A stretch of 60,574 nt of DNA, filler included, from Sphacelaria rigidula (taxonomy: Eukaryota), in assembly GCA_964200075.2 (NCBI GenBank). It is 9 parts of 9 records of this genome, joined end to end, with 100 filler letters (N's around TTAATTAATTAA, not from the genome) between each part and the next. Parts side by side here need not be neighbours in the genome. Positions count along the whole stretch, not along the records: positions 53,934 to 60,574 come from CAXNAA020018884.1; 8 more parts are not named here. One strand, 5' to 3'. Under the pieces are notes generated by a model, which was not told the DNA's origin, made no database searches, and worked only from the letters and a program-made list of their open reading frames with translations. Within the stretch, counting starts at the first letter, position 1. Each line of letters opens with the position of its first letter. The translations under genes and the position numbers were made by a program. Positions 1 to 60,509 of this stretch are shown piece by piece.

Positions 1-91
1 CTCTGGTCAAGGACGCCCGATTGGAATACAAGACCAACATGCGAATGGAATAAGACCTACTGCAGTTGCCACGCATACTGCAAAGCGCCTA

Positions 92-2376
92 CTACACATA
101 CAGTCGATATCCGCCGCAACATATCTCTCTGCCTCGATTTCCTAGCTCTAGCCGTTTCCAATTGGGATTTCCTGTCAACCGTGCTACCCTCTCGGCCACC
201 TCCGACTCCGGCCATCTCGAGATGCCGTCTGCTAGCTCGTTTTCGACGCCAGGTATGTGTTTCGCGATAATACACCACCCGGTGGCGACTTCCATGCGGC
301 CCATCATCCGCATTAGTAGGGCGGCGCGTCTGTCTTTTGATCCCCCGCATTATTTTACCCAGTGTACAGCCGACGAGTTGTCGCCGCGCATCAGGATAGG
401 GTCTCCTCTCTCCGTGGGCCTTTCGGCCTGAAACATTTGGATAGCGTAGGCGGTCATGAACATTCCACTCAGTTCTAGTAGATTGATAGTGATCGCGCAG
501 GTTTCTCTATTTTTTACTTTTCTCTTCAGTTCGCATGTGAGCTCATGGGGGTAAAGAGTACCGCTAGAATAGCCCGAGCTCTGGGCAGTACCCGCCTACC
601 GCTGCCAGGCTCGCGTCGGAGATGTATCTACGAGATGCGGCGCGTTTCGAGTGAGCGAAGAATGGATCGCTAAGTGATTCACCGCGATGCACCAGGTTCT
701 CCGCAATAGCCCATTTCCAAAAGGCGATATCCTCGTGAAACTCCCAGCCAAGGTTCACTGTTCGTCTCACCTTACGTTTCTTTTTCGCGGATACGTGTAG
801 GTCGGTGAGACGCAGTAGTTGCCATACGAAGTATTTCCCGGGTCTTACAACAAACATGAGGTTCCAGAGTTTCCCAGCTATGCTCAGTACGTCTTGCGCG
901 GTCGCGCGTGTCTTGTCGGGGGAGCAGTCGTGCTCCAGCGATTCTTTGATAGCTTCGACCTTTTCTCGAGTGACCTCTATCCGCATGGTGTGCATGTCGA
1001 TCGTGAATCCCAACGCATCTACGCTGGTGTCTCACTTTATACTTTTGTTAGGTGCAAGGATGGGTATCTCACCCGACTCTCCCGGGCCAGACAGTCTGAT
1101 GTGACCTGAGGCAATCGAAGCTGATGCGGCTAGCGCCGATTTATCTTGCACGCCGTGCTGTACCCTTGCAAGGATATAGTCGTCCACATACACGCTAACG
1201 AAAAGGGGTCGTGGAGTCCCCCCCCGTTTGCTGGGGGAATAGTAGCATCGGACCGGACCTTTGTAGGTGTTCCTTGTTCCCAGGGCTCGACTATGGTCAC
1301 GTGTTTCATCATCTCTCTACCTTCGCTGAGTATTATGGCGTCGAGTATTGTGGTATTGCAGTGTGCATGTTCAGCAGCCTGTGATAGGAGTCCCCAGTGG
1401 CCGGGGGACCCCGTCCATCCAAACGTGAGCCGAAAGTCTGCTACTATAACGTCGTCTACCACGTAGCAGCAGTTTTACGCCTGGTCGGGCGCGATCCTGA
1501 CATTTCTGAATGCATTCGAGACATCCGCCTTTGACAGTAGGGTTCTACTATCCGGAAACTTGACACGTAACCTCAGGATTTCATTCAGTAGTTTTGGGAG
1601 TGCCTCTCCGCAGAGGCATTGCGGCACCTCGTCCACAATCGTGTCCCGGTTGACGCCGCCTTCTTCTCCCTTCGGTCCGTTGGGGTCAAACGAAAAATTG
1701 TTGATGATCCTGACTTTGCTAGTTACTACTGCCCCAAGGGGGGCCACTCTGAGGCCGCTGATTTCAAGCGCCGCCCCTTTTCAAACACCAGGCATCTGTT
1801 CCTTCGTACACCCTCAATCAACTTCTCCCAGACTTGAGGCATGTGCTCTTCGATACTGCGGTGATTACTGTATTTCAGTGCTCCTCGAAGATCGGGAACG
1901 CTAGACGATGTGTTCATTGGCACTCCGCACTCAATCATGTACAGGAGTTCTCGTATCCGAGGAAAGTGTTTTTGGTTTCCGAAATACTTGTGGACGTCTC
2001 TCAGGTTTATCGGCGGTGACACTAAAGTGCCGCCGAGTCCCTTTGCTACATCTCCGATTCTTCCGTGGTTGAGTCGGACGAGACTCGTGCAGGTGGCGGC
2101 TAGGTCTGTGATGATGCGTTTCATTTCTGTTGGGTCTATGTGTGTGTTCGAGAGTTCTTGCTGTTGTTGTTTCCACCGGGTATTGAGGTTTTTGCTTGGG
2201 TGGTCTCTGTGTCCGGTTGGGCTTCGGTGGCGTGTGGTCCCAACTGGAGGTGAATTTTTTACCGACCCGAAATTTCGCCTACCGATGATCTCCTTATTAT
2301 CGGTGTTGTAATTTTTCTTTGGGCGCTTCTCACTCTTCAACGTGTGCGAGCCGTTGTCTGGGCTACCTGTGTTCAA
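92..2376 (-). pseudogene. Reverse transcriptase / RNase H (pol) of the DIRS/Ngaro element, with frameshifts and stops
   Basis: ORF pieces 1726-2376, 1475-1747, 1130-1462, 564-1013 and 92-313 carry successive RT and RNase H motifs in the expected order. Confidence 0.88.
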
Positions 2377-2427
2377 CTATTGATCAACGGTTTTGTTTTA
2401 GTGCACTGGGGGCTGTTATGAACTCGT

Positions 2428-2635
2428 TCACGCTTTGCGCTCGTCAACATGGACGTGCCGTTGTCCAGGGTTCCCTCGGAACTGCCAGACAACGGGTCTT
2501 CTTCTGCACCTCTATGTTCCTTTGCTCCTCTCAAGTCACTGGTTATCGAGTTTGCACGCTTTGCGCTCGTCAACATGGACGTGCCGTTGTTCAGGGTTCG
2601 TTCGGAACTGCCGAACGCCGGGTCTTCTTCTGCAC
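2428..2635. repeat. Imperfect direct repeat (~82 bp, 2 copies, ~126-bp period) inside the retroelement
   Basis: CACGCTTTGCGCTCGTCAACATGGACGTGCCGTTGT...GGGTCTTCTTCTGCAC occurs twice. Confidence 0.9.
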
Positions 2636-3296
2636 TGGGTGTGATTCGAATTTCACGGGGAGCACGAGTTCTGTTCTTGTCTGATCTACCGACGTTGAGG
2701 GTTACCTGTGCGTAACTGCCAACCGCCGGATCTGCTTCTACACGTCTCCTGTCTGCGGGGATGTGCGAAGTGGTGTTTGCGTCGTGTATGCGTGTAGTAC
2801 TGTTGTTTTCGTTGCTCATGGACGGGCGAATTACCTGATCTTGTTGCTGACTTACCCGTGTGCGTTCGTGCTTTCCGTTGTACCTCAATGTCGACCGGTT
2901 ACAGTGATCGTGCGGGCCATTGATCGCGTGTTTGTTGTTTTTCGTGACATTGCGCGGGGTGGTGGTCTCATCGAGTATTTCATGCGTGCAAGCTCTACCG
3001 TCCAGTCTAGTGTACCCTGCCGGCATTTCCTTGTTACAGTACGTCTTGGTGGGGTTGGTGATGGAATTTTTGGTCGGTTGTGGGAAATGCGGAATAGGAC
3101 TACGTGGTCTACCGCTGTGACGTGCATATGGGTTGTTACGTGCGTTGGTACTTCTGCTCTCACCGTGAAAGAAGCTTGCCGCCACCGACCCCGGTTGGGG
3201 GGCCTGCGCGATACCCACCGATCTCGCTGAGTCCGTGACCGGTGCTCCTCCTCCCCCCAGACTGGTAGGCCCCGCCGACTGGCGGAGCCCGCACCC

Positions 3297-5243
3297 TCAG
3301 GTGCCCCGCCTAGCTCCACCATTTCCGCCGAAGCTGTGGGGGAAACGCGCCACTGTACTCGCTGCGGCCGCCGGTGCCGCTGGCGCTGGTGGTTTTGCCG
3401 TCGCCGCCGTCGGGGCTGTTGGAGTTATCTGGAACGCCGCTGGCGGCTGCAGGGGAGGACCTCCGACGGCTTCGTGCTTGCTGGTGTGATCCGTGAGGCG
3501 GCAGCCGCGCCCCCGTGGGCATGTGAGGCCCTGCCAAGCTCGTAAGCAGACGCCCGCCGGCGGGGCCCATGACGCCAGTTCCGTGTTGAAGTCGGTGTTC
3601 GGCGGCGTGAGGTGTTGCCACTGGGGCGGGTATGGCGGGGGTCGGGGAGCGACGCGTTTGACCGCGTTGCTCGTGCCCCCGTCGGGGAGTGCCGTTCGCT
3701 TGACGGCTGCCTTGGGGGTGGGCTGCGCGGGTGAGCCTGCTACCGCGAGCCCGGGGTTTTGGCGGCCGATGAGGCTGCTGGGGTGGCCGTCGGCGGTTAG
3801 CGTCTTCACACGTGTGAACGATGGCGCCGGCGCCGCGGGGCCCTGCCCGTTGGCGGGTGGGGCTGCGGGAGACTCCGTGCGTAGGTTCAGTCCCGCGTAC
3901 CTGCATTCTGTGAGCCACCCGTTCATGTCGTCGTTAAAGTCAGCGATTATGCGGGTTTTGACGGCCGCCTCGTCTCTGTGTAGAGCAGCGTAATTTTTTC
4001 CCGTATACGCGTCCAGCGCCGACGCCATCCTCGTCAGCTCTCCTGTGATGAAGGCTTTCCTATCCCGCCCGCCGTCGTTGTCGGTGGTGCCGAAGTTGAT
4101 GATGATGGTCAGCGCCTTGGTGAATGTTGTGACATGGACCTCAGCGAGAAAGTAGTTTTTTTATTACCAGGCAGCACCGGGGAGTAGAAGTTGGTGACGT
4201 CTACGTCGGTCAACGTCTGGAGATTGCTCAGCATGCCCCGGTTGGTGTCGGCCACGTCGCGGAGTTTTACTTTCAAGTTTGCGTCAGACATGTGAATGAA
4301 AATGGAGACCCCGCCCCTGAGGATTTGGAAGAGTGCCTTGTTTTCGTCCGAAAGCCAGCTGTTGATCTCCCGCTTCTCCTGCATTTCTTCGGCCTTCTTC
4401 GTACCGGCGGGGGCGGTGTTGGCCGCTCCCATTGCATGCATGAGTTGTTGGATCTGCCCCCCTCCCCCCGCCACTGAGAAGTTGGAGGAGTTGGTGGACC
4501 GTGGATTGCGGCTGTGCCTGGTGGTATTGCTGTGGTTGCTGGTGATGGAGATGTTGTATGTGGTGTTGGTCCGGCCGTGGTTGCTGTTGTTGCTGCGGCG
4601 GCTGCGGCTGTTGGTGTTGGTGCTGCGGTTGTTGGTGCTGCTCGTGCTGCTGAGGTTTATGATGTTGCTGCTGCTGTTGCGGTGGTGATGCGGTAGTGGC
4701 CCTCCGATGGGTGACGGCAGTGGGACGTTGGGTGCAAGCAGGGAGGCCACGTTTGCTCTTGCCCCCGCCATGTGCTGTTGCTGTGTGGCGCTCGCCGGCT
4801 GCCGGCCGACCACGCCTTGTACGGCCACGCCTTGCGGGTGTGGTTGTTCATACTGGAGAATATGTACCTGCTGTTGAAGGTTCGAAATTGCCTGGCTCTG
4901 TTGCTGCTGTCTGTGAAGGTTTTTCTGGTGTTGCTGTTCCATGTTGATGTTCGTTTTTGCCTGTGCCTGCAGGATTTGAGCTAGAATGTCGGATGGCTGA
5001 CTTGGACCAGGTGGGGGTCCGAGTGGCGGTGGGGGGGGGTGCAGGTGCGTCAGTATTCAACTGGCCTTCACTACCTTGCTGGCGGGCATGTTGGTTGACG
5101 GAAATCGGGTTGCTGTGCGTGCTTCCGGCTTGCGGTGCCGAGGCTCGGCTTGGTTCCAGTCCTGCGGCCCTTCCCTCTTTTACTCCTGCCGCTGCTGTGC
5201 TGCTCCCGATGCTGATGTGTTGTCCATCGTAAAAATCAATCAA
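3297..5243 (-). pseudogene. Gag-like ORF1 of the DIRS/Ngaro element, with Q-rich region and CCCH-like zinc finger
   Basis: Frameshifted ORFs 4848-5243, 4109-4942 and 3297-4028; motif CLRAWQGLTCPRGRGCRLTDH (C-x8-C-x5-C-x4-H); lies upstream of pol. Confidence 0.65.
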
Positions 5244-47699: not shown

Positions 47700-48121
47700 C
47701 CCTTGACTGTACTGCGTTAAGATGGGCCCTTAGACCTTACATTGCCTAGTCAAAGCTACCAAGTACCTGTGCCATGCCGTACTGCACTGTCTGAACAGTG
47801 GGTACTGTACAGTTGTACTACTCCGTATTTCTCGGCATCTTACCATCTTGTCCAGTATTTTCACCGATATATATATGTAATATATGTATGTAAAGACCTT
47901 GAATTCTCAATAGTTTCCCATTCATCGAAGCACATTAATGAGATCACCTCAATGACGTCCAGGTTCTGCAGCGTGATTGGGTGACCACAGTAGTGCAGTG
48001 CTGAATTCAATCGACTTTGGATAACTCATCATCCGGATGATGGGGGTGTTATACTACGTCATACACGGCAACACGGTAAGTTAACCGCTGGTCAACCCTG
48101 TCCGTACATACACTTTCTGAC

Positions 48122-48433
48122 CTTTGCGAGACCCCGAACCGGCTCCTTCTCGAGTAATTCCTTCAACCCCTTCTTGCTGTTGTCCTTGATGAATAGGCAC
48201 ATCTCGCAGTCGTCCTGTTTGCGCAAGGGGTGCGGTATCGGTATACGCATGGGCTTGGCGCCCACGTTTTCAGGTATCTTGTGCAGGGAGAGCTGCGCTA
48301 ATATCACCTCTCCTTCGTCCTCCAGTAGGCTTAGTTTCTGTCCATCATCCGCATTACTTTTGACATGCTTAAGAAGGGCAGCCGCAGCGCGGCGTACTTG
48401 TGCTTCATCTAGTCTGTTCTGCTTTTCCGGCAT
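48122..48433 (-). CDS. RSL1D1: Exon 1 of a ribosomal L1 domain-containing protein (RSL1D1/Cic1/Utp30 family)
   Basis: MPEKQNRLDEAQVRRAAAALLKHV...KPMRIPIPHPL...EMCLFIKD...GLAK followed by donor GTCAGA; typical family N-terminus. Confidence 0.88.
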
Positions 48434-48678
48434 AGTTACAGATAGCCACAAGACCACCACGGTTGCAGTGCAAAGTACTCTCAGTCAAGTAGCTGGCTCA
48501 TGGCATGGTGTGCGCGCCCACCCATGTTGAGAAGTATGACGTATAGCATACGCGAAATGATGTTTCGGAACAGTTCTCGGCCAGGGGAGATGTTGTGAGC
48601 GCCTCGTTGGTCTGTCCCCGTTTACCGACTTCAGAACAGTGCATACATACGCGTGTGTGGCCTGCTTCAAGTAGTGAG
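48434..48678. promoter_or_regulatory. Candidate bidirectional promoter
   Basis: Only 245 bp separate the divergent start codons. Confidence 0.55.
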
Positions 48679-51689: not shown

Positions 51690-53269
51690 TGATTTTTTAC
51701 ACAAACTGTCCCTAAATGACGTTCGAGTTCACCGTTTGACTGGTTTTTTCTTCTCTTGCTCGGCTCCTCAACCCATAGGATCTCCGACCGCAGAAATTAG
51801 TCGGCAACTCAAATAAATCGGTGAAATCGAGTGGAACTAAGGTCACTGTAAAACTCGGCGACCTAGGGTTTGCCATTAGGAAGACACGCGTGAAAATTAA
51901 TTTCCCGTCTTCGATATTACAATCGACACAAGAAATTAAACCGAATGTGCCACCTGACCCCCTTGTGGACCAGCCTGTAACTTATTCGCGGAACACGTTC
52001 AGGTTTGCCCCCATCCCTCACGCAGATTTCATTATTCAGGAGACAAAATTTGACATGTTTCGTGAAGATAGGTGCCAGGGACCCCCAGAAACCGTTGAAA
52101 CTGAAAGGAGTTTGAAAGTACTCAAGAACGGGCGACCTTGGACTTCCCTCCACGAACAAGCCTGTAAAAGTTCGTTCCCCGAAACTTCATTCGCGACAGC
52201 GTGAGAAAATGAATGCCGGCTGAACTTCTAAATTCCTGCCCAGACCAACTTGTACCACAAAATTACCCCTGTTTACTTTTATCCTGCAACTCGTTGACTT
52301 GTTCGGTGCTTGTTGGTCATGCGTGACTACCGCGGTGGAAACGTTTCGCGCAACGTGTATGTAGCCCTGATCACGGCCACAGTCGAGTCGTTTGCAGGCA
52401 ATGGGTGTGCCTCTCCCAGTGTGTAGCTGCGACACCTTACTTGGACAACTTTGTGTCTTCTACGCTTTTTGCCGGGTTTTCCGTGTACATATGAGTTTCT
52501 TGTTATTAATAGTTGGGCACAAGACGGATCAGCCTCTAAGTCGGGCAGCCAAAAGTCCTGGGGTCAGCCACGAACAGTTCCTGCTGTAGTTGTACTGCAC
52601 CATACCACGCACGTGTCTACACCACACTGGGGACTCTCACAGTAGTAAAACACGATTTTGATGGAGTGCTGCGAGAGCCCCGGGCCCTGAAGGGTCAGTA
52701 TAAGAGCATGTAGGAAAAAATTGACGCGAGACTCGTACAGTATTGCGAGTCAAGTGGCAAGCATCACACTATGGGCCGGTTCGTGTTTTGGACGTTCTTC
52801 TCCCACCTGTGTAGTCCTTCCTGCCAGCGGCTTGTGGCTGAATAGTTTTTGCGTGCATAAGGTTTCATGTAAATATCATAATTCGTTTTGATTTGCATTT
52901 TCAAAAATGGTGTAGTGTACTTGAATCGGGAATTGGGTGGCAATTGCGTACATGGTGTCTGAAGTCTCTTCAGGGGGGTATAGGGCGGTGTACCGCAGCA
53001 CATTTCAGTGCAACATGCTGTGAAATACGTGTATCGTAGGGTCGTGCACCGCTAGTTTTTACGGCAGGCAGTATTATCGTACTAGCAAGTACGCTACTAC
53101 ATGATCTTATGAGGTCTAAAGGTGATGCTATCAGATATATAAACTTGAAAGATTGTTGTTGTTTTTTCCCCGCGACACAAAAAACAAAGCCTGCAACAGG
53201 TCTACGAATGCGCTGTGATGTAACACATCCCTTTTGCCGCCCTCGTGGTTTATTGTACCTATTTCGCAG

Positions 53270-53741
53270 TGGGAACAGGTGGGAGAAAATCTGCATGGTA
53301 CCCCCTTTCGCGTCGGCGCCATAAACTGCGTCAAGCATCGGGCATTGTGCCGCTCTCTCAAGGTAGATCGATACCCGACTCTGCTGGCCGTTAACTGGCC
53401 TGGGGCACCGTCAGGAGAGGCGGGGATCCCGGCGCCCAAGCCCATCTCAAAGGCAGGCGAGGTGGTGGATATCGTACACCAAATAAAGACGGGTTTAGGC
53501 GAGGGTGATCAGAAGGATGTGGATGTTGAGTTGCCACCGGAAGGGGAGGAGCAAAGAGTTGCTCCGGTAGAGGTTGGTCCTCCTATTGTTCCCGCTGTTC
53601 CCGCTGTTCCCGCACCTGCTGCTGATATGAGTGATTATGGCACCGAATGCCCGCTGAGGATAGAGGACGCGGTGGCGAGCGTACGATGGGTCTTGACCCA
53701 TGAAACAATGGTTCAAGATTATCTCGAGGAGGACCGATGGA
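53270..53741 (+). CDS. Exon 2 of the QSOX-like protein
   Basis: Acceptor TTTCGCAG; WEQVG...VGAINCVKHRALCRSLKVDRYPTL completes the thioredoxin fold in phase with exon 1; RIEDAVASVRWVLTHE resembles the QSOX helix-rich region; donor GTAAGT. Confidence 0.82.
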
Positions 53742-55451
53742 GTAAGTGTGGAGACCTGACGTTCAAGAATTTTGTTTGGTTGTTTCGCCCCCTTGTGTGT
53801 TTGCCATGATGTTAGACGGGGAATTATCGCAATNNNNNNNNNNNNNNNNNNNNNNNNNNNNNNNNNNNNNNNNNNNNTTAATTAATTAANNNNNNNNNNN
53901 NNNNNNNNNNNNNNNNNNNNNNNNNNNNNNNNNCATTGACCGCCTTTCACTCTCAATCGTATCCTCTACTCTCAATCTCACGAAAACGTTGTTATCCCTG
54001 GAAATTTTCATCACATCATCGTTTTTTTACTGAAAACCCGTGTTTGGCCTTATTTGGCCAAAAGCAAAAGTGCGGCCAGCGGGAAATGCAGAGTTGCCCT
54101 AGAACGGTCTCAACGAGTAGAGCAAGTCATTCCAAGGCGTCAACATCCGCCTAGCACTCTTTTCGGGCGCAAACCGACGGAGAAGGGCCCAAAAGGCAGT
54201 TTCGACAGAAAATTTTGAACGGCTCACATTAGAGTTGGCCTAAGATACAAAGAAGGAAATGTTCAATTGTACAGGGATTGTAAAATTCGGCGCCACGGTT
54301 GTTGTACAGGCAATCAGTGGAGCAACGCAAGCTATGTCCAGGCTCGTTTAACGTACTGCCGACTACGCCGCTTGAAAGCTACTCTCGGGCAAGACCTTTG
54401 CGGTCGGCGTTCGACGACGTGGGTCACGAATACACCGGCAAGTAGTTGATCATACTCGTAGAACACCCTCGTTTATGGATAAAACACATCTCGCCCCAGT
54501 TTGTTATGGCCTCCTCACACAGGATTTTTCGAAAGACACATACCCATGCACATACTGTACCCTGCTGAGCACGCGACCGGTTGTGCATCAGAAAAATCTC
54601 AGATTACAGGATGGCAGCCCCCGTATGGGTCACGCCAGCAACAGGTTGGTCACCCCCGGAGATATCTTTTTCACTCCGCATGCCTAGAAGGTCTCCACGA
54701 GTGTTTGATCTCTCATCCATCCCCCCAAGTTGGGTGTGGCAAACTCTTGTCCTTGTTGTGCACACACGGGAGCAGAGGTCGGGTAAAATCAACGATGACA
54801 ATAACGCCCCCCAAGTTGCGATTGGATTATTGCCGCGACAGCGTCCTTACTGCCATGCGTGTGTGAGAGAGAACGGTAGCGGTGACGGGAACGTCGCCTT
54901 GCTTTTCGACGACGTGTTCTGCAAACGCACAGAGGTGCGTCCTGTCCAAAAAGCGAGGCAGAGAGGAATCGATCGTTGCATTGGTCAGCGCCACAGTCAA
55001 GAGACGGTAACCCTCGGCATCCCGATCTTGGGGGGACTGTGCGGCAATAACTCGCCTGCCAGCACATGGAGAATTGGGTATGTGCTGGTAACATGATACC
55101 GATTCTTCCAGCGATTGGGAATCGCCGAACGAGGACACACAAAGGACACCGGCGAGGAGCTTCCTCTCCGCCGTTGTCGCTCCTCCGGTGGTGTTGTCAT
55201 TGGCAAGCGTGCACACCCCATTCATTTGGTGCACCTAGCCACATCTGCTTCACTGCGACATATTCTTTTTTCGCGAAGGCGCTTTCCCTTGGCGTAGCTA
55301 TTTCGCGCAAAAACTGGGTTTTGGGTTTCGCCGGTTGAACCTCATTTTAGTGTTCAATCCCAATTTCGAGGATCCTCTGTTCTCTCAGTATAGCCATCGT
55401 TTCCTCGCTAATGTGCAATGTATCAAACGATTTCATGCGACCTCTGTTTGG

Positions 55452-55796
55452 ATTTGTTTTGGTTGATCGATTGATTGATTGATGGATTGTCGCACTTTCA
55501 CTGATCCCCCCAGGGGTCATGATCCAGCCGTGGTCACATGATAGACGTATCTGACGGAGACAAAACAAAACCGAAACACTTGCTGACGAAAAAAAAAGGG
55601 GAAAAAAAGTCGAACAGAACGACAAAGCAGCCTAAGACGTAAATCAAAAGAAGAATGAAAGTCAAGAAAAGGAGACACAGGAAGAAATGGCCGGTCTGAA
55701 AATAAAAGGGGGACAAAGCCCAAGGGATTCAGGTCAGCAGAGTAGATACAGACACGCACTAGTGGGGACCGCGAAGCCACCGACTAAGGACATAAT
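55452..55796 (-). mobile_element. ~345-bp insertion with (TCAA)n tail interrupting the LINE C-terminus
   Basis: LINE-like reading ...MRKVN stops near 55800 and resumes as RGRMKSFDTL near 55450; the insert ends in ATCAATCAATCAATC; boundaries approximate. Confidence 0.5.
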
Positions 55797-55851
55797 CAAC
55801 AACCGTTTACTTTCCGCATTCCCCCCTCCAACACGTCCCGTTTCTCCTTGT

Positions 55852-56703
55852 TGTGGCGATTTACAGGCAACCGATTAGGCTACCGTACAGTCAGCGCTGA
55901 CTGTACGGTAGCCTAATCGGTTGCCTGTAAATCACCACAACAGTTAGTCGCTGGTTCGATTCCCGTCGGACGCACTTCCTTTGAAGAAAAAGAGGAAAAC
56001 CCTACCTCCAGTAAAGAGGAGGGTGAAGGGGGAGAGTCCAATCCCCGAGTTGACTGCTAGGGACCCCAGTGCACACATTCTGGGAATGAGTGGGGGAGAC
56101 GAGTAACTCCGAATGCATACGTGTGTCAACATTAGACCGGTACCGCGAGCGCGAACAGTTGAAGAGCGGTGGCAAGGGGAGTCGCCCTCCTCGGAGTGAA
56201 AGCGACGGATATCGAATGGCCACGACTAACTTTTGTGACGATTTATAGGCAATCGATTAGACTACCGTACAGTCAGCGCTGACCGTACGGTAGCCTAATC
56301 GGTTGCCTGTGAATCGTCACAAAAGTTAGCCGCTGGTTCGATTCTCGTCGGACGCACTTTCTTTGAAGAAAAAGAGGAAAACCCTACCTCCGGTGAAGAA
56401 GAGGGTGAAGGGGGAGAGTTCAATCCACGAGTTGACTGCTATGGACCCCAGTGTACACACTCTGGGAATTAGTGGGGGAGATGAGTAACTCCGAATGCAT
56501 ACGTGTGTCAACATTAGACCGATACCGTGAGCGCGAGCAGTTGAACAGCGCTGGCAAGGGCAGTCGCCCTCCTCGGAGTGAAAGCGACGGGGATCGAACG
56601 GCCACGACTAACTTTTGTGACGATTTATAGGCAATCGATTAGGCTACCGTACAGTCAGCGCTGACTGTACGGTAGTCTAATCGGTTGCCTATAAATCGTC
56701 ACA
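55852..56703 (+). mobile_element. Tandem non-autonomous element: three 88-bp palindromic terminal repeats (55852-55939, 56234-56321, 56616-56703) and two 294-bp bodies
   Basis: 382-bp period; TGT...ACA termini; loop-less palindromes centred on AGCGCT; flanks TTGT/TTGC whose collapse restores the LINE frame (ELHKEKRDVLEG). Confidence 0.9.
55909..55963 (+). promoter_or_regulatory. Pol III type-2 internal promoter (A box + B box)
   Basis: TAGCCTAATCGG (55909-55920) fits TRGCNNARYNGG; GGTTCGATTCC (55953-55963) is a canonical B box; repeated at ~56291-56345. Confidence 0.7.
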
Positions 56704-59700
56704 TTGCGCAGTTCCCATTCTGCCACTTTATGAGTTCTACTCTCCATTGCTTTGCCACAGGGGCACTTCTATGCATCTACTTCCCCCTCCTTTCGACTAC
56801 TGGTGTATCCCCTTCTTCCTGGCAGGTCCAGTGCTCCCACCCAAAATCACAGTTTCATATTTTTCGCCGAGTCTATTGGGCCATGCAGATACATTTTTAT
56901 CCCTATCCCCTCTCAAAACCCCCCGTATATCTTCGGGTGTTCTTCCGCGTCCACTTTCCGTCTTAGCGCTTCTTGTCCCTTGTTTCTATCATGTTTCTTA
57001 ATTCTGTCTTGTAGCTGCCACATTCACCTGTGGACATCTTCTCGTCTTGGTGTTGACCCATGTCCTTCCATACTTTCTCCATGTCTCAATCCCACCTTAT
57101 TCCAGTCTGCCCTTTCGTCACTTTCTTCCGTACGGCCCTTTCAACTATGGCTGGCAATTTCGTTTTTGACATTCTCCTTGCGGTACATTTCCATTTCAAT
57201 TTTTCATGTCTATGTTCTAAGTGCGTACAACCCCAACTCCGCTATCAATGCGGTATTGCTCGTCATTTTTGAACATCCTAGTATTTTCTTAGCTGCTGTC
57301 ATGTGTAATGTTTCTGGCTTCTTCGCCGACTTCGTGTTCCCCTCCCATACTTCTCCTGCAGATGCCAGCTTTCGGTACAATCACATTTATCGGAATACAT
57401 CTCCCTAACACTTGTATCTAGGTGCGAATCGCGTAGGATCACTTTCATCTTGCCTCTGTGTCTTACCCTTTTCCTTTACTTTATTTTTGTGTGTACCCCA
57501 AAAATAGTTTCTTTAGATCTCTACGCCAAATTATGTACGCTGGTCTACGATCGGCAGTTCCTCTTCTCCCCTCTTCCATTCGAAATCTACGGGGTTTCCC
57601 TTGTCTTCGTCACATACAAGTACCGCGCGTTTGTCTTCAATCGCTGCCACTCTTCGTTCCTTAGTGTGTTTCAGGGCCTTCTCTATTTGCTTCTATAACC
57701 CTCCTGGTGCTTCTGAAATCCCCACAAAATCATCCGCGAAAGTCAATTCCGATACCGTATTTTCCACACCTTGACTCCTTGATTTGCTGCTTCTATTGCT
57801 ATTATCAGGTCATCAATGAATAATTTGAATGCAGTGGATGGTTATGTACATCCTGGTGTTTCTCCTGGGGAAATATAAAAATATTTCGATATTTTCCCGT
57901 CTAGTATCATAGCACAGTTTGAGTATATCTGTCGTCTACTTCACCACTCTCCACATTTCCCCTCCGATCCCAGTTTCTCACAACTTTTTCCACAGCCCAT
58001 TTCTCCTTACTGCCATAGCCCTTTTGTACGTCCAGAAAGAAACAGTACGTTGTCAGCCCGGCGTCTTTCCTACCTTAAACAAATTTACCTCATGTGTGGA
58101 CATGGTCTACGCAACTACAGTTTGGCCTAAAATGTGCCTGCCCCTCGCTCCTTCTCTCCGCCTCTTGGGTGTGTACTCGTTTTCCCAGATCCAGTTATGC
58201 AGCATAACCATAATCTTAATCATTCCCTTTTCCCGTAATTCAGACATTCGTTCACCATGTCGTCTGCCCCTCATGCCTTCCTGATCTTGGGTTTAGCTCT
58301 ACACTCCTTTATTTCATCTCTGGTAAACGCTCTCCGCTATTCTTCGAAGCCACTATCCTCCCGTTTTGATGCCCCTACATTTGACTCTGCCCACGCATTG
58401 ATTTCTTTCTCAAACCTCGTGTCGAACATCTCGTTAGTTTTTGGTGTTCCTAGTTCACGATATTGCTCCACTAGTACTGCTCTCGTCCCCCTCGAAATAC
58501 TAACCAATTTACCGCTCTTTGCCCGTAGTGTGGCTATCCCCTTGTCTACCTTTCCTGCCCGGTTTCTCATTGACCCTATTTTATCCCTACCCGCATTTGC
58601 TTTGTCCCACCATCGAAATATTCATTTGCTTTATTCACTACATCTTTCCGTCTTCTCTTTTTTTCTTCTCTGCCTTCTTTTGTACTTCATTTCGAGCTTT
58701 AACATGCTCCTCCCATCCTACCGTAGTTTTAGTCGAAATATATCTTACGTGTGCCTCTCTTCTTACTCTTACGACCTCTTTCTGCCTCCTCATCCCACCA
58801 TTTTATTGCTCTGTTGCATACGATCAGTTTCTTTCGGATGACCTTGCTCGCTTTGGTCTTGACCAACTGCTCGCATCCTTCTCTATTCTTCGCTCTTGTT
58901 CGATCTAATTCCATTTCGGGGTGAACTGTACCTACGCTTTCCAACAACTCGCAACATTTGACCGAAGTTTTGGTCATATCTTCTTGGATCCCTTCCCGTA
59001 TTTCTTGTATTTCTAGCTCATCTATTCTCCATTTGTACAACTTCCTACCCCGCTTATTTATTTTCTTTAGCTCTCGTCTGTTGGCTGTCTGTTCACAGTA
59101 GGCAATGATCTGTGCTTCCCACGCCTTCTGCGCATACATGTACTTCCATATCCTTGTGATTTCCGTACTCTACTCCTGCATAGTCAACAATGAAATTTTC
59201 TGTCTTTTTTCTTTGCACTGTCTAGTCCATGCATATTGCGTCTTTGGCTTTAGTGTTCAATTGTTCAGCGTCTTCTCCCTATTTTCAAGGAACTTCAGCA
59301 TCTCTACCCCATTTGTGTTCTTCATCTCTTCTCCGTATTGCCCAACGATACCATCCGGTCGACTTGCATTTCCAATCCTTGCATTAAATTTTCCCACGGA
59401 CATCACTTCTCCTCGCCTTCCGTACGTTTGTACCTTTGGTGCTATCTCTCCAAACCTCCTCTGCACATTGTTTACCGTGCTCTTCGGTTCTTGGGGCATA
59501 AAGATGTTTCCTAATAGACAGCATTTCGTTCCCCGCTCTCCTGATATCCTTATCCGTATGCTCTCGTCAAATTTGGAGTCTGCCATCACTTCTATGATAC
59601 CATACAGGTATTCCTTATCTAAGAATCCTACTCCCCCCGCTCCCCTGTTCTTGGGATTCTGTCCCTTCCGCTTTTCCCCGATCCATGTGTACTCTCTAAC

Positions 59701-60509
59701 TTTGCATCCTGTTTCCACTCCCTCTTTCTCCTATGATGCTTGGATTCCCACTATATCTAGGTCGCGCTCGCTTATTTGTTCGGCTATCTCCATTCTTTTG
59801 CGCTTGTATAAGACGAATCCACACATGTTCCACGATCTTATTCTCAAGTTCCTTTTCAAATCATGATGCAGCCCACTCTCCTCTCTCCACCGTTTTTACT
59901 TCTATTTTCCCTTGCTTGATTTTTCTTCCCGTTTCCGGTTTGGTCTTTGTTTGCTTCGGGTCGATATTTCCCCTTCCCTTCCCCTTCCGGGCATTTCCCT
60001 GTTCCTGCTTCTCCTTTCCTCTATTGACCCGCGGACTACGCCTCAGGTTTGTTGTTCCATGGGCTATGCATACTCTCCATCCTACCCTTCCAACCCGTGC
60101 CGACACCTTACTTGCCTCTATTATTTCCCGCTCCTTGCTCGCGCTCTGTTTCAGCGTGACTAGAAAGTGTTCCTCCTCTCTTTCTACTTTTCCTCTTGCC
60201 AACCAGTATATTCCTACTTCATTGCATTCGTATTGATTCCGAATACCAGCACTACTAGTACTTTAACCGCCCACTCTTTACTTTACTCTCTCCATCCATC
60301 GTTCCTCACCGTCTCTCTCTCTCTCTCGATCTCTTTCGAGAGTATCTTCCGCTTGTTCATTTTAAGTATTGTCGTGGGATGTAGTCAACGTACTGAGATA
60401 TCCCAATCCTAGTACGTGTCGGGGGTCTAGTGAGGAGAGGGGGGCGTACTCATCTGTTGCTTGCCTTAGTCGTTTGACCATTGACCAAATGGAGAGAGGG
60501 CGCGCGCGT

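Follow-up and report, generated by a model that had tools for sequence, protein, structure and literature searches.

Which kind of mobile element ends in repeats that are direct and inverted at the same time? The question is raised by an 852-bp element in the DNA of Sphacelaria rigidula, which was located in a stretch of 60,574 nucleotides (60.6 kb; hereafter the window) and consists of two bodies and three copies of a loop-less palindrome, P. A preliminary description made from the sequence had recognised the layout. Here, its structure, insertion site, promoter-like signals and relatives in other sequence data were analysed, and possible origins were compared.

Structure of the element

The element occupies 55852-56703 in the order P-body-P-body-P with a period of 382 bp (3 × 88 + 2 × 294 = 852 bp; Table 1), which confirms the arrangement given in the preliminary description, the units being 92% alike. 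With TRF, a single indel-free array was obtained (55851-56703), comprising 2.2 copies of period 382 with 92% matches. A repeat search found an 88/89-nt repeat in three copies, spaced 382 bp apart and 91-92% alike, as well as three inverted repeats whose arms (44-55 nt, 89-98% complementary) adjoin without a loop. The basic unit is P-body-P with 470 bp; elsewhere within the 60.6-kb window, further copies of P or of the body were not found. The two bodies are separated by 15 transitions and 8 transversions, and the pairwise differences between the P copies amount to 5/88 (P2-P3), 7/88 (P1-P3) and 8/88 (P1-P2). This divergence is compatible with an insertion and a duplication soon after.

Table 1. 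Positions of the element's parts, its promoter-like signals and its surroundings, counted along the window.
Feature	Positions	Strand	Basis or remark
Host, decayed LINE copy	55470..59730	-	endonuclease ORF, RT-like fragments, C-terminal Cys/His knuckle, 3' tail
Target-site duplication, left copy TTGT	55848..55851	.	TTG(T) once in empty site, twice here
P1, left terminal repeat, loop-less palindrome TGTGG...CCACA	55852..55939 (88 bp)	.	arms mismatched at 1/44 pairs
tRNA-like module 1	55902..55974	+	A box 55909-55920 in right arm of P1; B box 55953-55963 in body 1
Body 1, non-coding	55940..56233 (294 bp)	+	outer ~32 nt on each side form an imperfect inverted repeat prolonging the palindrome
TTTT at body 1/P2 junction, Pol III terminator position	56231..56234	+	T-run scan
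P2, internal palindrome common to both units	56234..56321	.	arms mismatched at 5/44 pairs
tRNA-like module 2	56284..56356	+	A box 56291-56302; B box 56335-56345, 1 mismatch
Body 2	56322..56615 (294 bp)	+	23/294 differences to body 1
Mirrored, decayed B-box-like motif of inverted module left of P3	56590..56600	-	1 mismatch to B-box consensus
TTTT at body 2/P3 junction	56613..56616	+	T-run scan
P3, right terminal repeat TGTGA...TCACA	56616..56703	.	arms mismatched at 2/44 pairs
Target-site duplication, right copy TTGC	56704..56707	.	sequence and comparison with other LINE copies

Each P had been described as an 88-bp palindrome. Such a palindrome is present at all three places, but at the internal junctions it continues past P into the body on both sides, at first perfectly (about 8 bases) and further on imperfectly (about 32 bases, with identity at 24 of 33 aligned positions). 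The central part of the body contains no palindrome (best local score 17 vs. a shuffle mean of 18.4). Taken as inverted terminal repeats, the ends of the element have arms of 99-100 nt with 91-94% identity, prolonged to about 120 nt. All six half-P ends carry TGTGG or TGTGA, and a 27-nt terminus pattern matched six times in the window, always within the element, with 0 matches expected from 100 shuffles. The TG...CA ends reported earlier were thus recovered in the form TGTGR...YCACA. Each P amounts to two 44-bp inverted ends (5'-TGTGR...) abutting at their inner sides and is, for this reason, a terminal repeat of the direct and the inverted kind at once; in principle, each could act as a minimal element alone. 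Snap-back (hairpin-primed) cDNA as the source of the palindrome was rejected, since the bodies are direct instead of inverted repeats and the centre of the body has no palindrome.

Insertion site and host LINE

The element lies in a decayed LINE copy on the opposite strand. The endonuclease ORF of this LINE (59260-59730) is 68% identical to a 469-aa protein with PF14529 and PF03372, and the nearest Atlas clusters are eukaryotic endonuclease/exonuclease/phosphatase. RT motifs in the LINE fragments were recognised by eye; a Pfam search of these fragments and of 14 larger ORFs gave nothing besides one weak Ribosomal_L1 match. The C-terminal Cys/His knuckle is situated at the insertion site and a short (ATCA)n-type 3' tail near 55470-55490. 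In other sequencing runs, the LINE is represented by thousands of contigs whose likeness stops at about 55469, with unrelated flanks beyond. Neither body nor P is similar to the host LINE.

Other copies of this LINE in public sequencing runs display the empty site, which reads ...CCTTGTAT and then AGTTCC, without the element. Compared to it, the window has 852 bp plus a 4-bp duplication (TTGT/TTGC) extra, and deletion of these 852+4 bases restores the LINE frame on the minus strand (...KVAEWELHKEKRDVLEGGMRKVNGC and the stop). The right flank, TTGCGCAG, corresponds to TTGTATAG in the LINE consensus, three transitions apart. In three of four runs, 73-103 contigs per run matched the right flank from 56710, and their unmatched side ends in the left-flank sequence ...CCGTTCCTCCTTGTAT; contigs joining 55851 straight to 56709-56712 were also present. 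Hence, the element is a true insertion into a LINE copy and has left a duplication of four, possibly three, base pairs. The insertion had been deduced earlier and is now seen directly from the empty site in other LINE copies as well as from the restored frame. Regarding the 4-bp target-site duplication (TSD) assumed before, four bases are indeed extra relative to empty LINE copies, but the two duplication copies agree at only three of four bases in the one insertion inspected; a 3-bp TTG duplication around an 853-bp element starting with TTGTG fits equally well.

Putative RNA polymerase III signals

The right arm of each P together with the first ~35 nt of the body is tRNA-like, the A box being inside P and the B box in the body, about 12-13 nt past P. 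Module 1 begins 6 nt right of the palindrome centre. It alone combines an A box with a B box in the 60.6-kb window, at a spacing equal to that of tRNA positions 8 to 52. Judged from the sequence, the palindrome centre would coincide with the start position of RNA polymerase III. Runs of at least four T on the plus strand of the element occur twice only, at the two body-to-P junctions. A mirrored and decayed module is indicated left of P3, and the equivalent mirrored B-box motif left of P2 has more than two mismatches; good preservation of Pol III signals and terminators is confined to a single strand. In the window, ARAGORN predicted no tRNA gene, and the tRNA-like part was not recognised by the tRNA model of Rfam either.

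Features of other element types

For a primer binding site (PBS), the 20 nt after P (ACAGTTAGTCGCTGGTTCGA and AAAGTTAGCCGCTGGTTCGA) were inspected: no TGG is found within 11 nt after P, the earliest one being that of the B box; an unusual primer among the host tRNAs is possible. A polypurine tract (PPT) is likewise missing, with purines at 7/16 positions of the sequence that precedes P2 and P3 (GGCCACGACTAACTTT). Because of the inverted symmetry, both PBS and PPT are missing in either orientation. This bears out the earlier remark that the element fits neither TRIM nor MITE cleanly, as it has terminal repeats both direct and inverted yet neither PBS nor PPT.

No ribozymes or other Rfam families were detected within 55852-56703 at E-values up to 10, and a retrozyme was rejected for the missing hammerhead ribozyme in the repeat. 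Matches of P to microRNA hairpins stayed below threshold (best 34.7 bits vs. a gathering score of 80). A 93-aa minus-strand frame which is open across both bodies was discarded as a gene for want of a protein relative (of 3 candidates, none scored). The element is without coding capacity, and a transposase or integrase gene bounded by TGTGRCGATTTA-type ends was not found within the 60.6-kb window. Helitrons and Helentrons produce no TSD and have 5'-TC...CTRR-3' ends with a 3' hairpin; they were rejected in view of the four duplicated bases and the TG...CA ends.

Related copies in other sequence data

Related copies of the element were present in tens to more than 100 contigs in other sequencing runs. 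These contigs have at least 80% likeness and come from metagenomes or a related organism, so that some copies may belong to other species. Body positions were covered by 31-102 contigs per run, e.g., 102 at position 56561 in run X4. Thus, the multi-copy family anticipated in the preliminary description exists in contigs of other runs. Among the boundaries listed for X4, 49 contigs lose likeness exactly after 56703 and have unrelated continuations (agreement 0.36), and another 154 contigs break at 56690, running through the P end. The left end at 55852 was not among the contig boundaries listed. In X4, P is also adjoined by another common sequence, GACCTCAG..., as if P served several bodies.

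The source locus itself was searched in public sequencing runs. A part of it was contained in 18 of the 20 runs listed, none of which reached half of the words (best share 0.20) and none of which was an RNA run. A metagenome scan with the P core gave three loci, all chance matches of 19-26 nt without further likeness. No hits were obtained with two patterns each in viral contigs and in contigs of prokaryote genomes.

Proposed origin and alternative explanations

The element is an unusual variant among known small transposons, not a new class. To the following origin we assign about an even chance: a non-autonomous, composite-like element was moved by a DDE transposase or integrase and later doubled by unequal crossover or re-entry of a circle. 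A DDE-type enzyme supplied in trans, of the kind at work in Ginger2 transposons and Gypsy-like elements, would have cut the target in a staggered manner and joined the outer TGTG/CACA ends to it. The second unit may have been added later, through unequal crossing-over of P copies or because a circle with one P and one body re-entered; each route would result in P-body-P-body-P within a single duplication, as in KolobokP and TRIM multimers. A tRNA-type Pol III unit with its start at the palindrome centre appears to have given rise to the body and the adjoining P arm, and a plus-strand Pol III RNA of ~340 nt, ending at the TTTT of the next P, is predicted and probably made. The Pol III signals on one strand count against a DNA transposon, since they are needed by an RNA-borne element, not by one that is purely cut and pasted.

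Alternatively, the element may be a Pol III-driven LTR retroelement of the TRIM type (TRIMp3, as in Helenus), with P in the role of the LTR. The tRNA-like promoter would then yield an RNA that is reverse-transcribed and integrated with the help of a Gypsy-like partner; template switching or LTR recombination would account for the dimer. Terminal direct repeats, TG...CA ends and a 4-bp duplication agree with this, as do the A and B boxes, located on one strand, and the T4 runs that close the units. A post hoc observation also fits: the 9 nt directly after P are pairable with the 9 nt that begin right of the palindrome centre, which would resemble a self-priming site such as that of Tf1. Furthermore, according to the part of the TRIMp3 account available, the 470-bp monomer is inside the Helenus range of 311-1263 bp, and animal Helenus elements have 4-bp TSDs (PMC10886601); tandem (LTR-internal)n-LTR arrays are typical of TRIMs, as stated in the accessible part of PMC9587614. 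However, the retroelement origin is weakened by the lack of PBS, PPT and coding capacity. Moreover, the B box is outside the repeat, and a Pol III transcript would be stopped by the TTTT where the next P begins, before terminal redundancy (R) is reached. A fully palindromic LTR was not found described in the literature searched. We consider a TRIMp3 origin rather unlikely.

Three further explanations were considered. A tRNA-derived satellite or SINE-like piece, a small extrachromosomal circle or a hairpin-ended fragment could have been captured in the repair of a staggered break, the 4-nt overhang being filled in, so that no transposon would be involved. The imperfect duplication at the one insertion inspected is in keeping with capture, and since parts of the body far exceed P in summed depth in runs X1 and X2 (e.g., 328,058 vs. 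1,032 in neighbouring bins), the body may exist independently as a high-copy repeat; this contrast is weak because depth over palindromes is unreliable in k-mer contigs. Capture is nevertheless very unlikely, considering the symmetric ends, located 44 nt either side of two palindrome centres and carrying TGTG/CACA, and the recurrence of the right end as a boundary in the 49 X4 contigs, as random capture would not repeat ends. Copying of a tRNA-derived SINE or SINE dimer by target-primed reverse transcription of a LINE is suggested by the tRNA-like spacing of the A and B boxes, by the T4 closing the unit, by the ~340-nt unit, which is in the SINE size range, and by the high copy number of the body in related runs. 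This is highly improbable given that the insert is bounded by whole palindromes instead of a Pol III start and a 3' tail, that neither an A-rich or microsatellite tail nor similarity to the 3' end of the host LINE is present, and that a 4-bp duplication is short for LINE-mediated insertion, for which long and variable TSDs are expected. Finally, the assembly might have spuriously triplicated one repeat; palindromes and tandem repeats are hard to assemble, and the exact locus was found in no public run. The units differ without indels (23/294 between the bodies, 5-8/88 between P copies), whereas artefactual duplicates would be identical, and the divergence of 8% between units rules out duplication in the assembly; the probability left to an artefact is close to nil.

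The palindrome as a possible module

Beyond the transposase- or integrase-mediated origin preferred above, P might be a self-contained 88-bp module, serving both as a minimal mobile unit and as two head-to-head Pol III promoter halves sharing a start. P-bounded elements would then form an undescribed class linking Pol III-driven TRIMs and integrase-type DNA transposons, which we regard as decidedly unlikely. In such a module, the palindrome could be kept or regenerated in each round of movement via a hairpin or self-primed intermediate; this is conceivable because pairing is possible between the 9 nt that follow P and the initial 9 nt of the predicted RNA. Two observations hint at such a module. 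Where the three P copies vary, the affected sites are mirror images of each other more frequently than chance predicts (3 partner pairs, P = 0.005, 200,000 random draws), one mirror pair being a G-C/A-T double change; and in X4, as mentioned, P is also adjoined by another common sequence. One of the three pairs has changed in different copies, however, which speaks for mutable sites and against an upkeep of the palindrome.

If the family is confirmed, it would be the most compact composite architecture in eukaryotes so far, the terminal repeat itself being a mini-element, with tRNA-type Pol III signals arranged around a hairpin with a 44-bp stem. Such elements would be annotated by software as both LTR elements and MITEs, and the P palindromes are potential sources of small RNAs and potential sites of cruciform-driven breakage. 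The Pol III start, boxes and terminator on one strand raise the question whether a Pol III-driven integrase-type element can exist without PBS or PPT. For now, the element is a curiosity for transposon specialists and opens no long-standing problem.

Comparison with known systems

The closest known systems are Ginger2 derivatives, KolobokP and Helenus, and with each of them the element shares some characters and differs in others, so that full membership was found for none. A literature search on palindromic LTRs, terminal repeats or MITEs yielded only papers on retroviral LTR-LTR junctions, software or parvoviruses. The earlier remark that no described family of this design was recognised holds for the wholly loop-less palindromic terminal repeat, which was not found described, but not for the repeat architecture, described for KolobokP, or for tRNA-like repeats, described for Helenus (PMC9587614 and PMC10886601, as far as these accounts were available).

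Foldback and palindromic MITE-like elements are likewise small and gene-less and form long hairpins from their ends or over their whole length; in Anopheles gambiae, 6 palindromic repeats are among 32 MITE-like clusters (PMC3212995). These are single palindromes or have long inverted ends, and the available part of that paper describes no design in which a palindrome recurs as direct terminal repeat on either side of a unique body, together with tRNA-like signals.

In Helenus TRIMs, terminal repeats contain tRNA-like Pol III promoter parts and the TSD is 4 bp in animals (Kojima 2024, PMC10886601). Similarities are the small size, the lack of genes, TG...CA direct repeats, A and B boxes and the 4-bp duplication. 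In contrast to the present element, Helenus has PBS and PPT, its tRNA-like part is within the LTR instead of straddling the repeat boundary and being mirrored on the other side, and its LTRs, as presented in the sections at hand, are not palindromes (PMC10886601).

KolobokP elements of marine invertebrates have direct terminal repeats with inverted ends of their own, solo repeats and (repeat-internal)n-repeat multimers in one 3-5-bp TSD; the multimers are attributed to unequal crossover or to a circle of one repeat and one internal part (Kojima and Bao 2022, PMC9587614). The architecture is the same here, including the multimer inside one TSD. However, going by the same partial source, KolobokP repeats measure ~450 or 660 bp with inverted ends of 11-18 bp, whereas the 88-bp repeat here is all palindrome; Kolobok ends are RR...YY instead of TG...CA; non-autonomous forms have 1.7-3.3 kb; and the family encodes a transposase and a His-Me nuclease, of which there is no sign in the element (PMC9587614).

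Ginger2 transposons have TGTNR termini, 4-bp TSDs, terminal inverted repeats of 50-180 bp and a preference for RTATAY targets (Bao, Kapitonov and Jurka 2010, PMC2836005). The target CTTGTA (empty site ...CC TTGT ATAG...) misfits RTATAY, in a single insertion and for a preference which is not absolute. The portions of that paper available report neither self-palindromic Ginger2 ends nor ends forming direct repeats, and make no mention of tandem multimers or tRNA-like parts (PMC2836005). A Ginger transposase linked to the element was not found in the window either. On the other hand, the TGTGG/TGTGA ends fit TGTNR, the inverted repeats of ~100-120 nt are in range and a 4-bp duplication is shared with Ginger2/TDD; the four extra bases correspond to the Ginger2 TSD, with three of four identical in a single insertion and a 3-bp reading possible. 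The Ginger2 transposase is a DDE enzyme related to the Gypsy integrase, which explains the LTR-like look of the element's ends (PMC2836005, in the part available).

Structure of the array

At 55852-56703, TRF gave a period of 382 with 2.2 copies, 92% matches and zero indels. A repeat search recovered an 88/89-nt repeat three times at a spacing of 382 bp (mutual likeness 91-92%), and an inverted-repeat search found three inverted repeats with 0 bases between the arms (arm length 44-55 nt, complementarity 89-98%). These searches agree with the preliminary description, in which a P-body-P-body-P array of 382-bp period with loop-less 88-bp palindromes (P) had been proposed. A 27-nt terminus pattern matched six times in the window, always within the element, and 0 times in 100 shuffles; no further P or body copies were found elsewhere in the 60.6-kb window.

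Coordinates of the element and of its tRNA-like promoter signals
Feature	Position in the window	Observation
P1	55852-55939	arm-pair mismatches 1/44
A box	55909-55920	9/9 constrained positions of tRNA residues 8-19 satisfied
body 1	55940-56233	
B box	55953-55963	perfect, exactly at residue 52
P2	56234-56321	arm-pair mismatches 5/44
body 2	56322-56615	
P3	56616-56703	arm-pair mismatches 2/44

The P copies differ pairwise at 5-8 of 88 positions (P1-P3, 7/88; P2-P3, 5/88) and the two bodies at 23 of 294 positions (15 transitions and 8 transversions), which is compatible with a duplication not long after insertion. That the array was duplicated in assembly is unlikely, because the units are 8% divergent without indels. 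The exact locus was present in none of the public sequencing runs, the best share of words being 0.20.

The palindrome exceeds the terminal repeat: at the internal junctions it continues on both sides into the body for about 8 perfect and about 32 imperfect bases (24/33 aligned positions), and the inverted-repeat arms delimited by the repeat search are 99-100 nt long (91-94%). The ends of the element are thus inverted repeats of ~120 nt, the outer 88 nt of which are self-palindromic; analysis of the middle of the body gave no palindromic character. Ten sites vary across the three P copies, including three mirror-image pairs (5/84, 13/76 and 28/61); at least three such pairs were obtained in 0.5% of random draws. 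Pair 5/84 is a double change (G-C vs A-T) and pair 13/76 forms the series C-G, T-G, T-A. At 28/61 the changes are in two different copies, a pattern equally suggestive of mutable sites and of palindrome maintenance.

Host LINE and insertion site

Contigs of four public sequencing runs (X1, X2, X4 and X7), assembled from k-mers and derived from metagenomes or a related organism, were compared with the window at a likeness of at least 80%. The DNA around the element belongs to a minus-strand LINE that has decayed, and thousands of copies of this LINE occur among the contigs. Its endonuclease ORF (59260-59730) has 68% identity to a 469-aa database protein with PF14529 and PF03372, and its nearest Atlas clusters are those of eukaryotic endonucleases. 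RT-like fragments and a Cys/His knuckle were recognized in LINE frames by eye only, and none of the LINE fragments scored in a Pfam search. A short microsatellite tail of ATCA/CAAT type, near 55470-55490 within 55465-55490 (minus strand), terminates the LINE; contigs of X2, X4 and X7 lose likeness at 55469-55475 and continue into unrelated flanks. This tail marks the LINE 3' end, ~380 nt downstream of the insertion.

From 56710 onward, the right flank was matched by 102 contigs of X1, 103 of X2 and 73 of X4, the unmatched side of which has the consensus ...CCGTTCCTCCTTGTAT, the sequence that flanks the element on the left in the window. In several contigs, 55851 is joined straight to 56709-56712, 1-3 letters intervening. 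From consensus and joints, the empty site reads CCTTGTAT followed by AGTTCC, and the window reads CCTTGT, 852 bp, TTGCGC and AGTTCC, a gain of 852 bp and of four further bases. Since the right flank, TTGCGCAG, is the counterpart of TTGTATAG, three transitions apart, TTGT stands on both sides of the element, with TTGC as the right copy. Removal of the 852+4 bases restores ...AEWELHKEKRDVLEGG..., at which point the LINE consensus, translated from the contig consensus, would be E-L-Y-K-E. The empty site in X1, X2 and X4 and this restoration bear out the insertion into a LINE claimed earlier: an 852-bp P-bounded piece was inserted with a short duplication. Of the 4-bp TSD claimed with it, the four extra bases relative to the empty site stand, but TTGT/TTGC is imperfect, and the single copy is explained equally well by an 853-bp element starting TTGTG with a duplication of 3 bp (TTG).

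Compared with the LINE consensus, 56704-56709 contains three adjacent transitions (TAT to CGC). Judged by the letters between the contig joints, other LINE copies have TGT, TAC or similar variants here, and the LINE family may vary at this site.

Related copies and their boundaries

Element-related sequence occurred in all four runs. Body positions were covered by tens to more than 100 contigs (e.g., 56561 by 33 in X1, 51 in X2 and 102 in X4) and P positions by 5-31. In X4, the likeness of 49 contigs stops exactly at the final base of P3 (56703), beyond which they have a median of 255 nt of unrelated sequence (agreement 0.36). A further 154 X4 contigs break at 56690, running through a variant P end; many continue with GACCTCAG..., which differs from the window's body, so P also adjoins other sequence. 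One X4 contig of 2281 nt passes from body through a whole P into 2.1 kb more. The P end is therefore a recurrent boundary elsewhere, as seen for the right end (56703) among the loose ends listed. No element copies were found in metagenome, viral and prokaryote collections.

The loose ends of X1 and X2 include 15-21 contigs whose match to the body begins only at 56047 or at 56163. Upstream of these points they contain other well-agreeing sequence (agreement 0.84-0.95), one of which looks tRNA-like. Parts of the body may thus be modules common to other repeat families.

Promoter-like signals and coding content

The right arm of each P and the first ~35 nt of the body form a tRNA-like part, and the A box and B box of the first unit combine in a way seen nowhere else in the window. 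The A box is identical in unit 2, where the B box carries one mismatch; on the opposite strand, the mirrored modules have decayed further. The palindrome centre is located 6 nt upstream of the tRNA-like position +1, in tRNA genes the usual place of Pol III initiation. Within the element, the only plus-strand T runs of at least four are two TTTT, both at body-to-P junctions. The predicted RNA of ~339 nt would fold with the inverted ends of the body paired (z = -2.6). Neither ARAGORN nor the Rfam tRNA model called a tRNA in the tRNA-like part, and its D and anticodon stems are unpaired. It is a promoter-like relic of the kind present in SINE heads. Neither PBS nor PPT was found in the element, an Rfam search (E up to 10) returned no ribozyme or other RNA family, and no protein relative was found for the 93-aa open frame across each body.

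Other features of the window

Between 6643 and 53933, N runs of 44 bases occur in eight pairs (12 bases between partners) at intervals of ~6742 bases; this regular spacing looks like a masking or scaffolding convention, not biology. On the minus strand, 60-5056 holds a series of long open frames of 149-315 aa, none with a Pfam match (E up to 0.01). By eye, frame 567-1031 (minus strand) resembles the thumb/connection region of an LTR- or DIRS-type reverse transcriptase, and 60-5056 may be another decayed retroelement. A 196-aa open frame at 53219-53806 (plus strand) has eukaryotic thioredoxin-domain proteins as nearest Atlas clusters (score 0.91) and was not scored in a Pfam search; probably it represents a host-gene exon that the N block at 53834 interrupts. 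A weak Ribosomal_L1 match at 48095-48484, minus strand (E 7.7e-05; 22.8 bits, under the 32.2-bit cut-off), may represent an exon or pseudogene fragment.

Proposed mechanism and alternatives

A DDE-type enzyme, supplied in trans, would make 4-bp staggered cuts and join the TGTG/CACA ends. Each P amounts to two 44-bp ends that meet at their inner sides. It is thus at once direct and inverted terminal repeat, and the mobile piece would be set by whichever two ends are outermost. Doubling to P-body-P-body-P would follow from unequal crossover between P copies or from re-entry of a one-P-one-body circle. Unequal crossover and circle models have been proposed for KolobokP multimers in PMC9587614, which also cites TRIM arrays.

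This DNA-transposon route is favoured, at about an even chance, because of the long inverted ends, the lack of PBS and PPT and the fit to the three sequence hallmarks of Ginger2 (PMC2836005). The main rival, a Pol III-driven TRIM like Helenus (PMC10886601), would explain why start, boxes and terminator were retained on one strand; it appears unlikely, as TTTT precedes the next P and the predicted RNA would have no terminal redundancy. Mobilization of a SINE by a LINE would account for the promoter, but the ends are wrong for a SINE and a tail is absent; this is less likely, as is the reading that repeat DNA was captured at a break.

Comparison with known families

The preliminary description had recognized no described family of this design. 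This holds for the wholly palindromic, loop-less terminal repeat, of which no description was found in searches of the literature, but not for the architecture, which is shared with KolobokP (PMC9587614). Its interpretation is supported in part, and the underlying observation is confirmed. None of Ginger2, KolobokP and Helenus agrees with the element in every membership feature tested. KolobokP has RR...YY ends and 450/660-bp repeats, which the element lacks, and the hammerhead ribozyme of retrozymes is likewise absent. The direct repeats and TSD of Helenus (PMC10886601) are present and its tRNA-like signals partly so, with the A box inside P and the B box in the body, whereas its PBS and PPT are missing. 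Ginger2 (PMC2836005) agrees in ends, in TIR length and in TSD and differs in its target preference. In its mode of action, the element would resemble a non-autonomous element of the integrase type.
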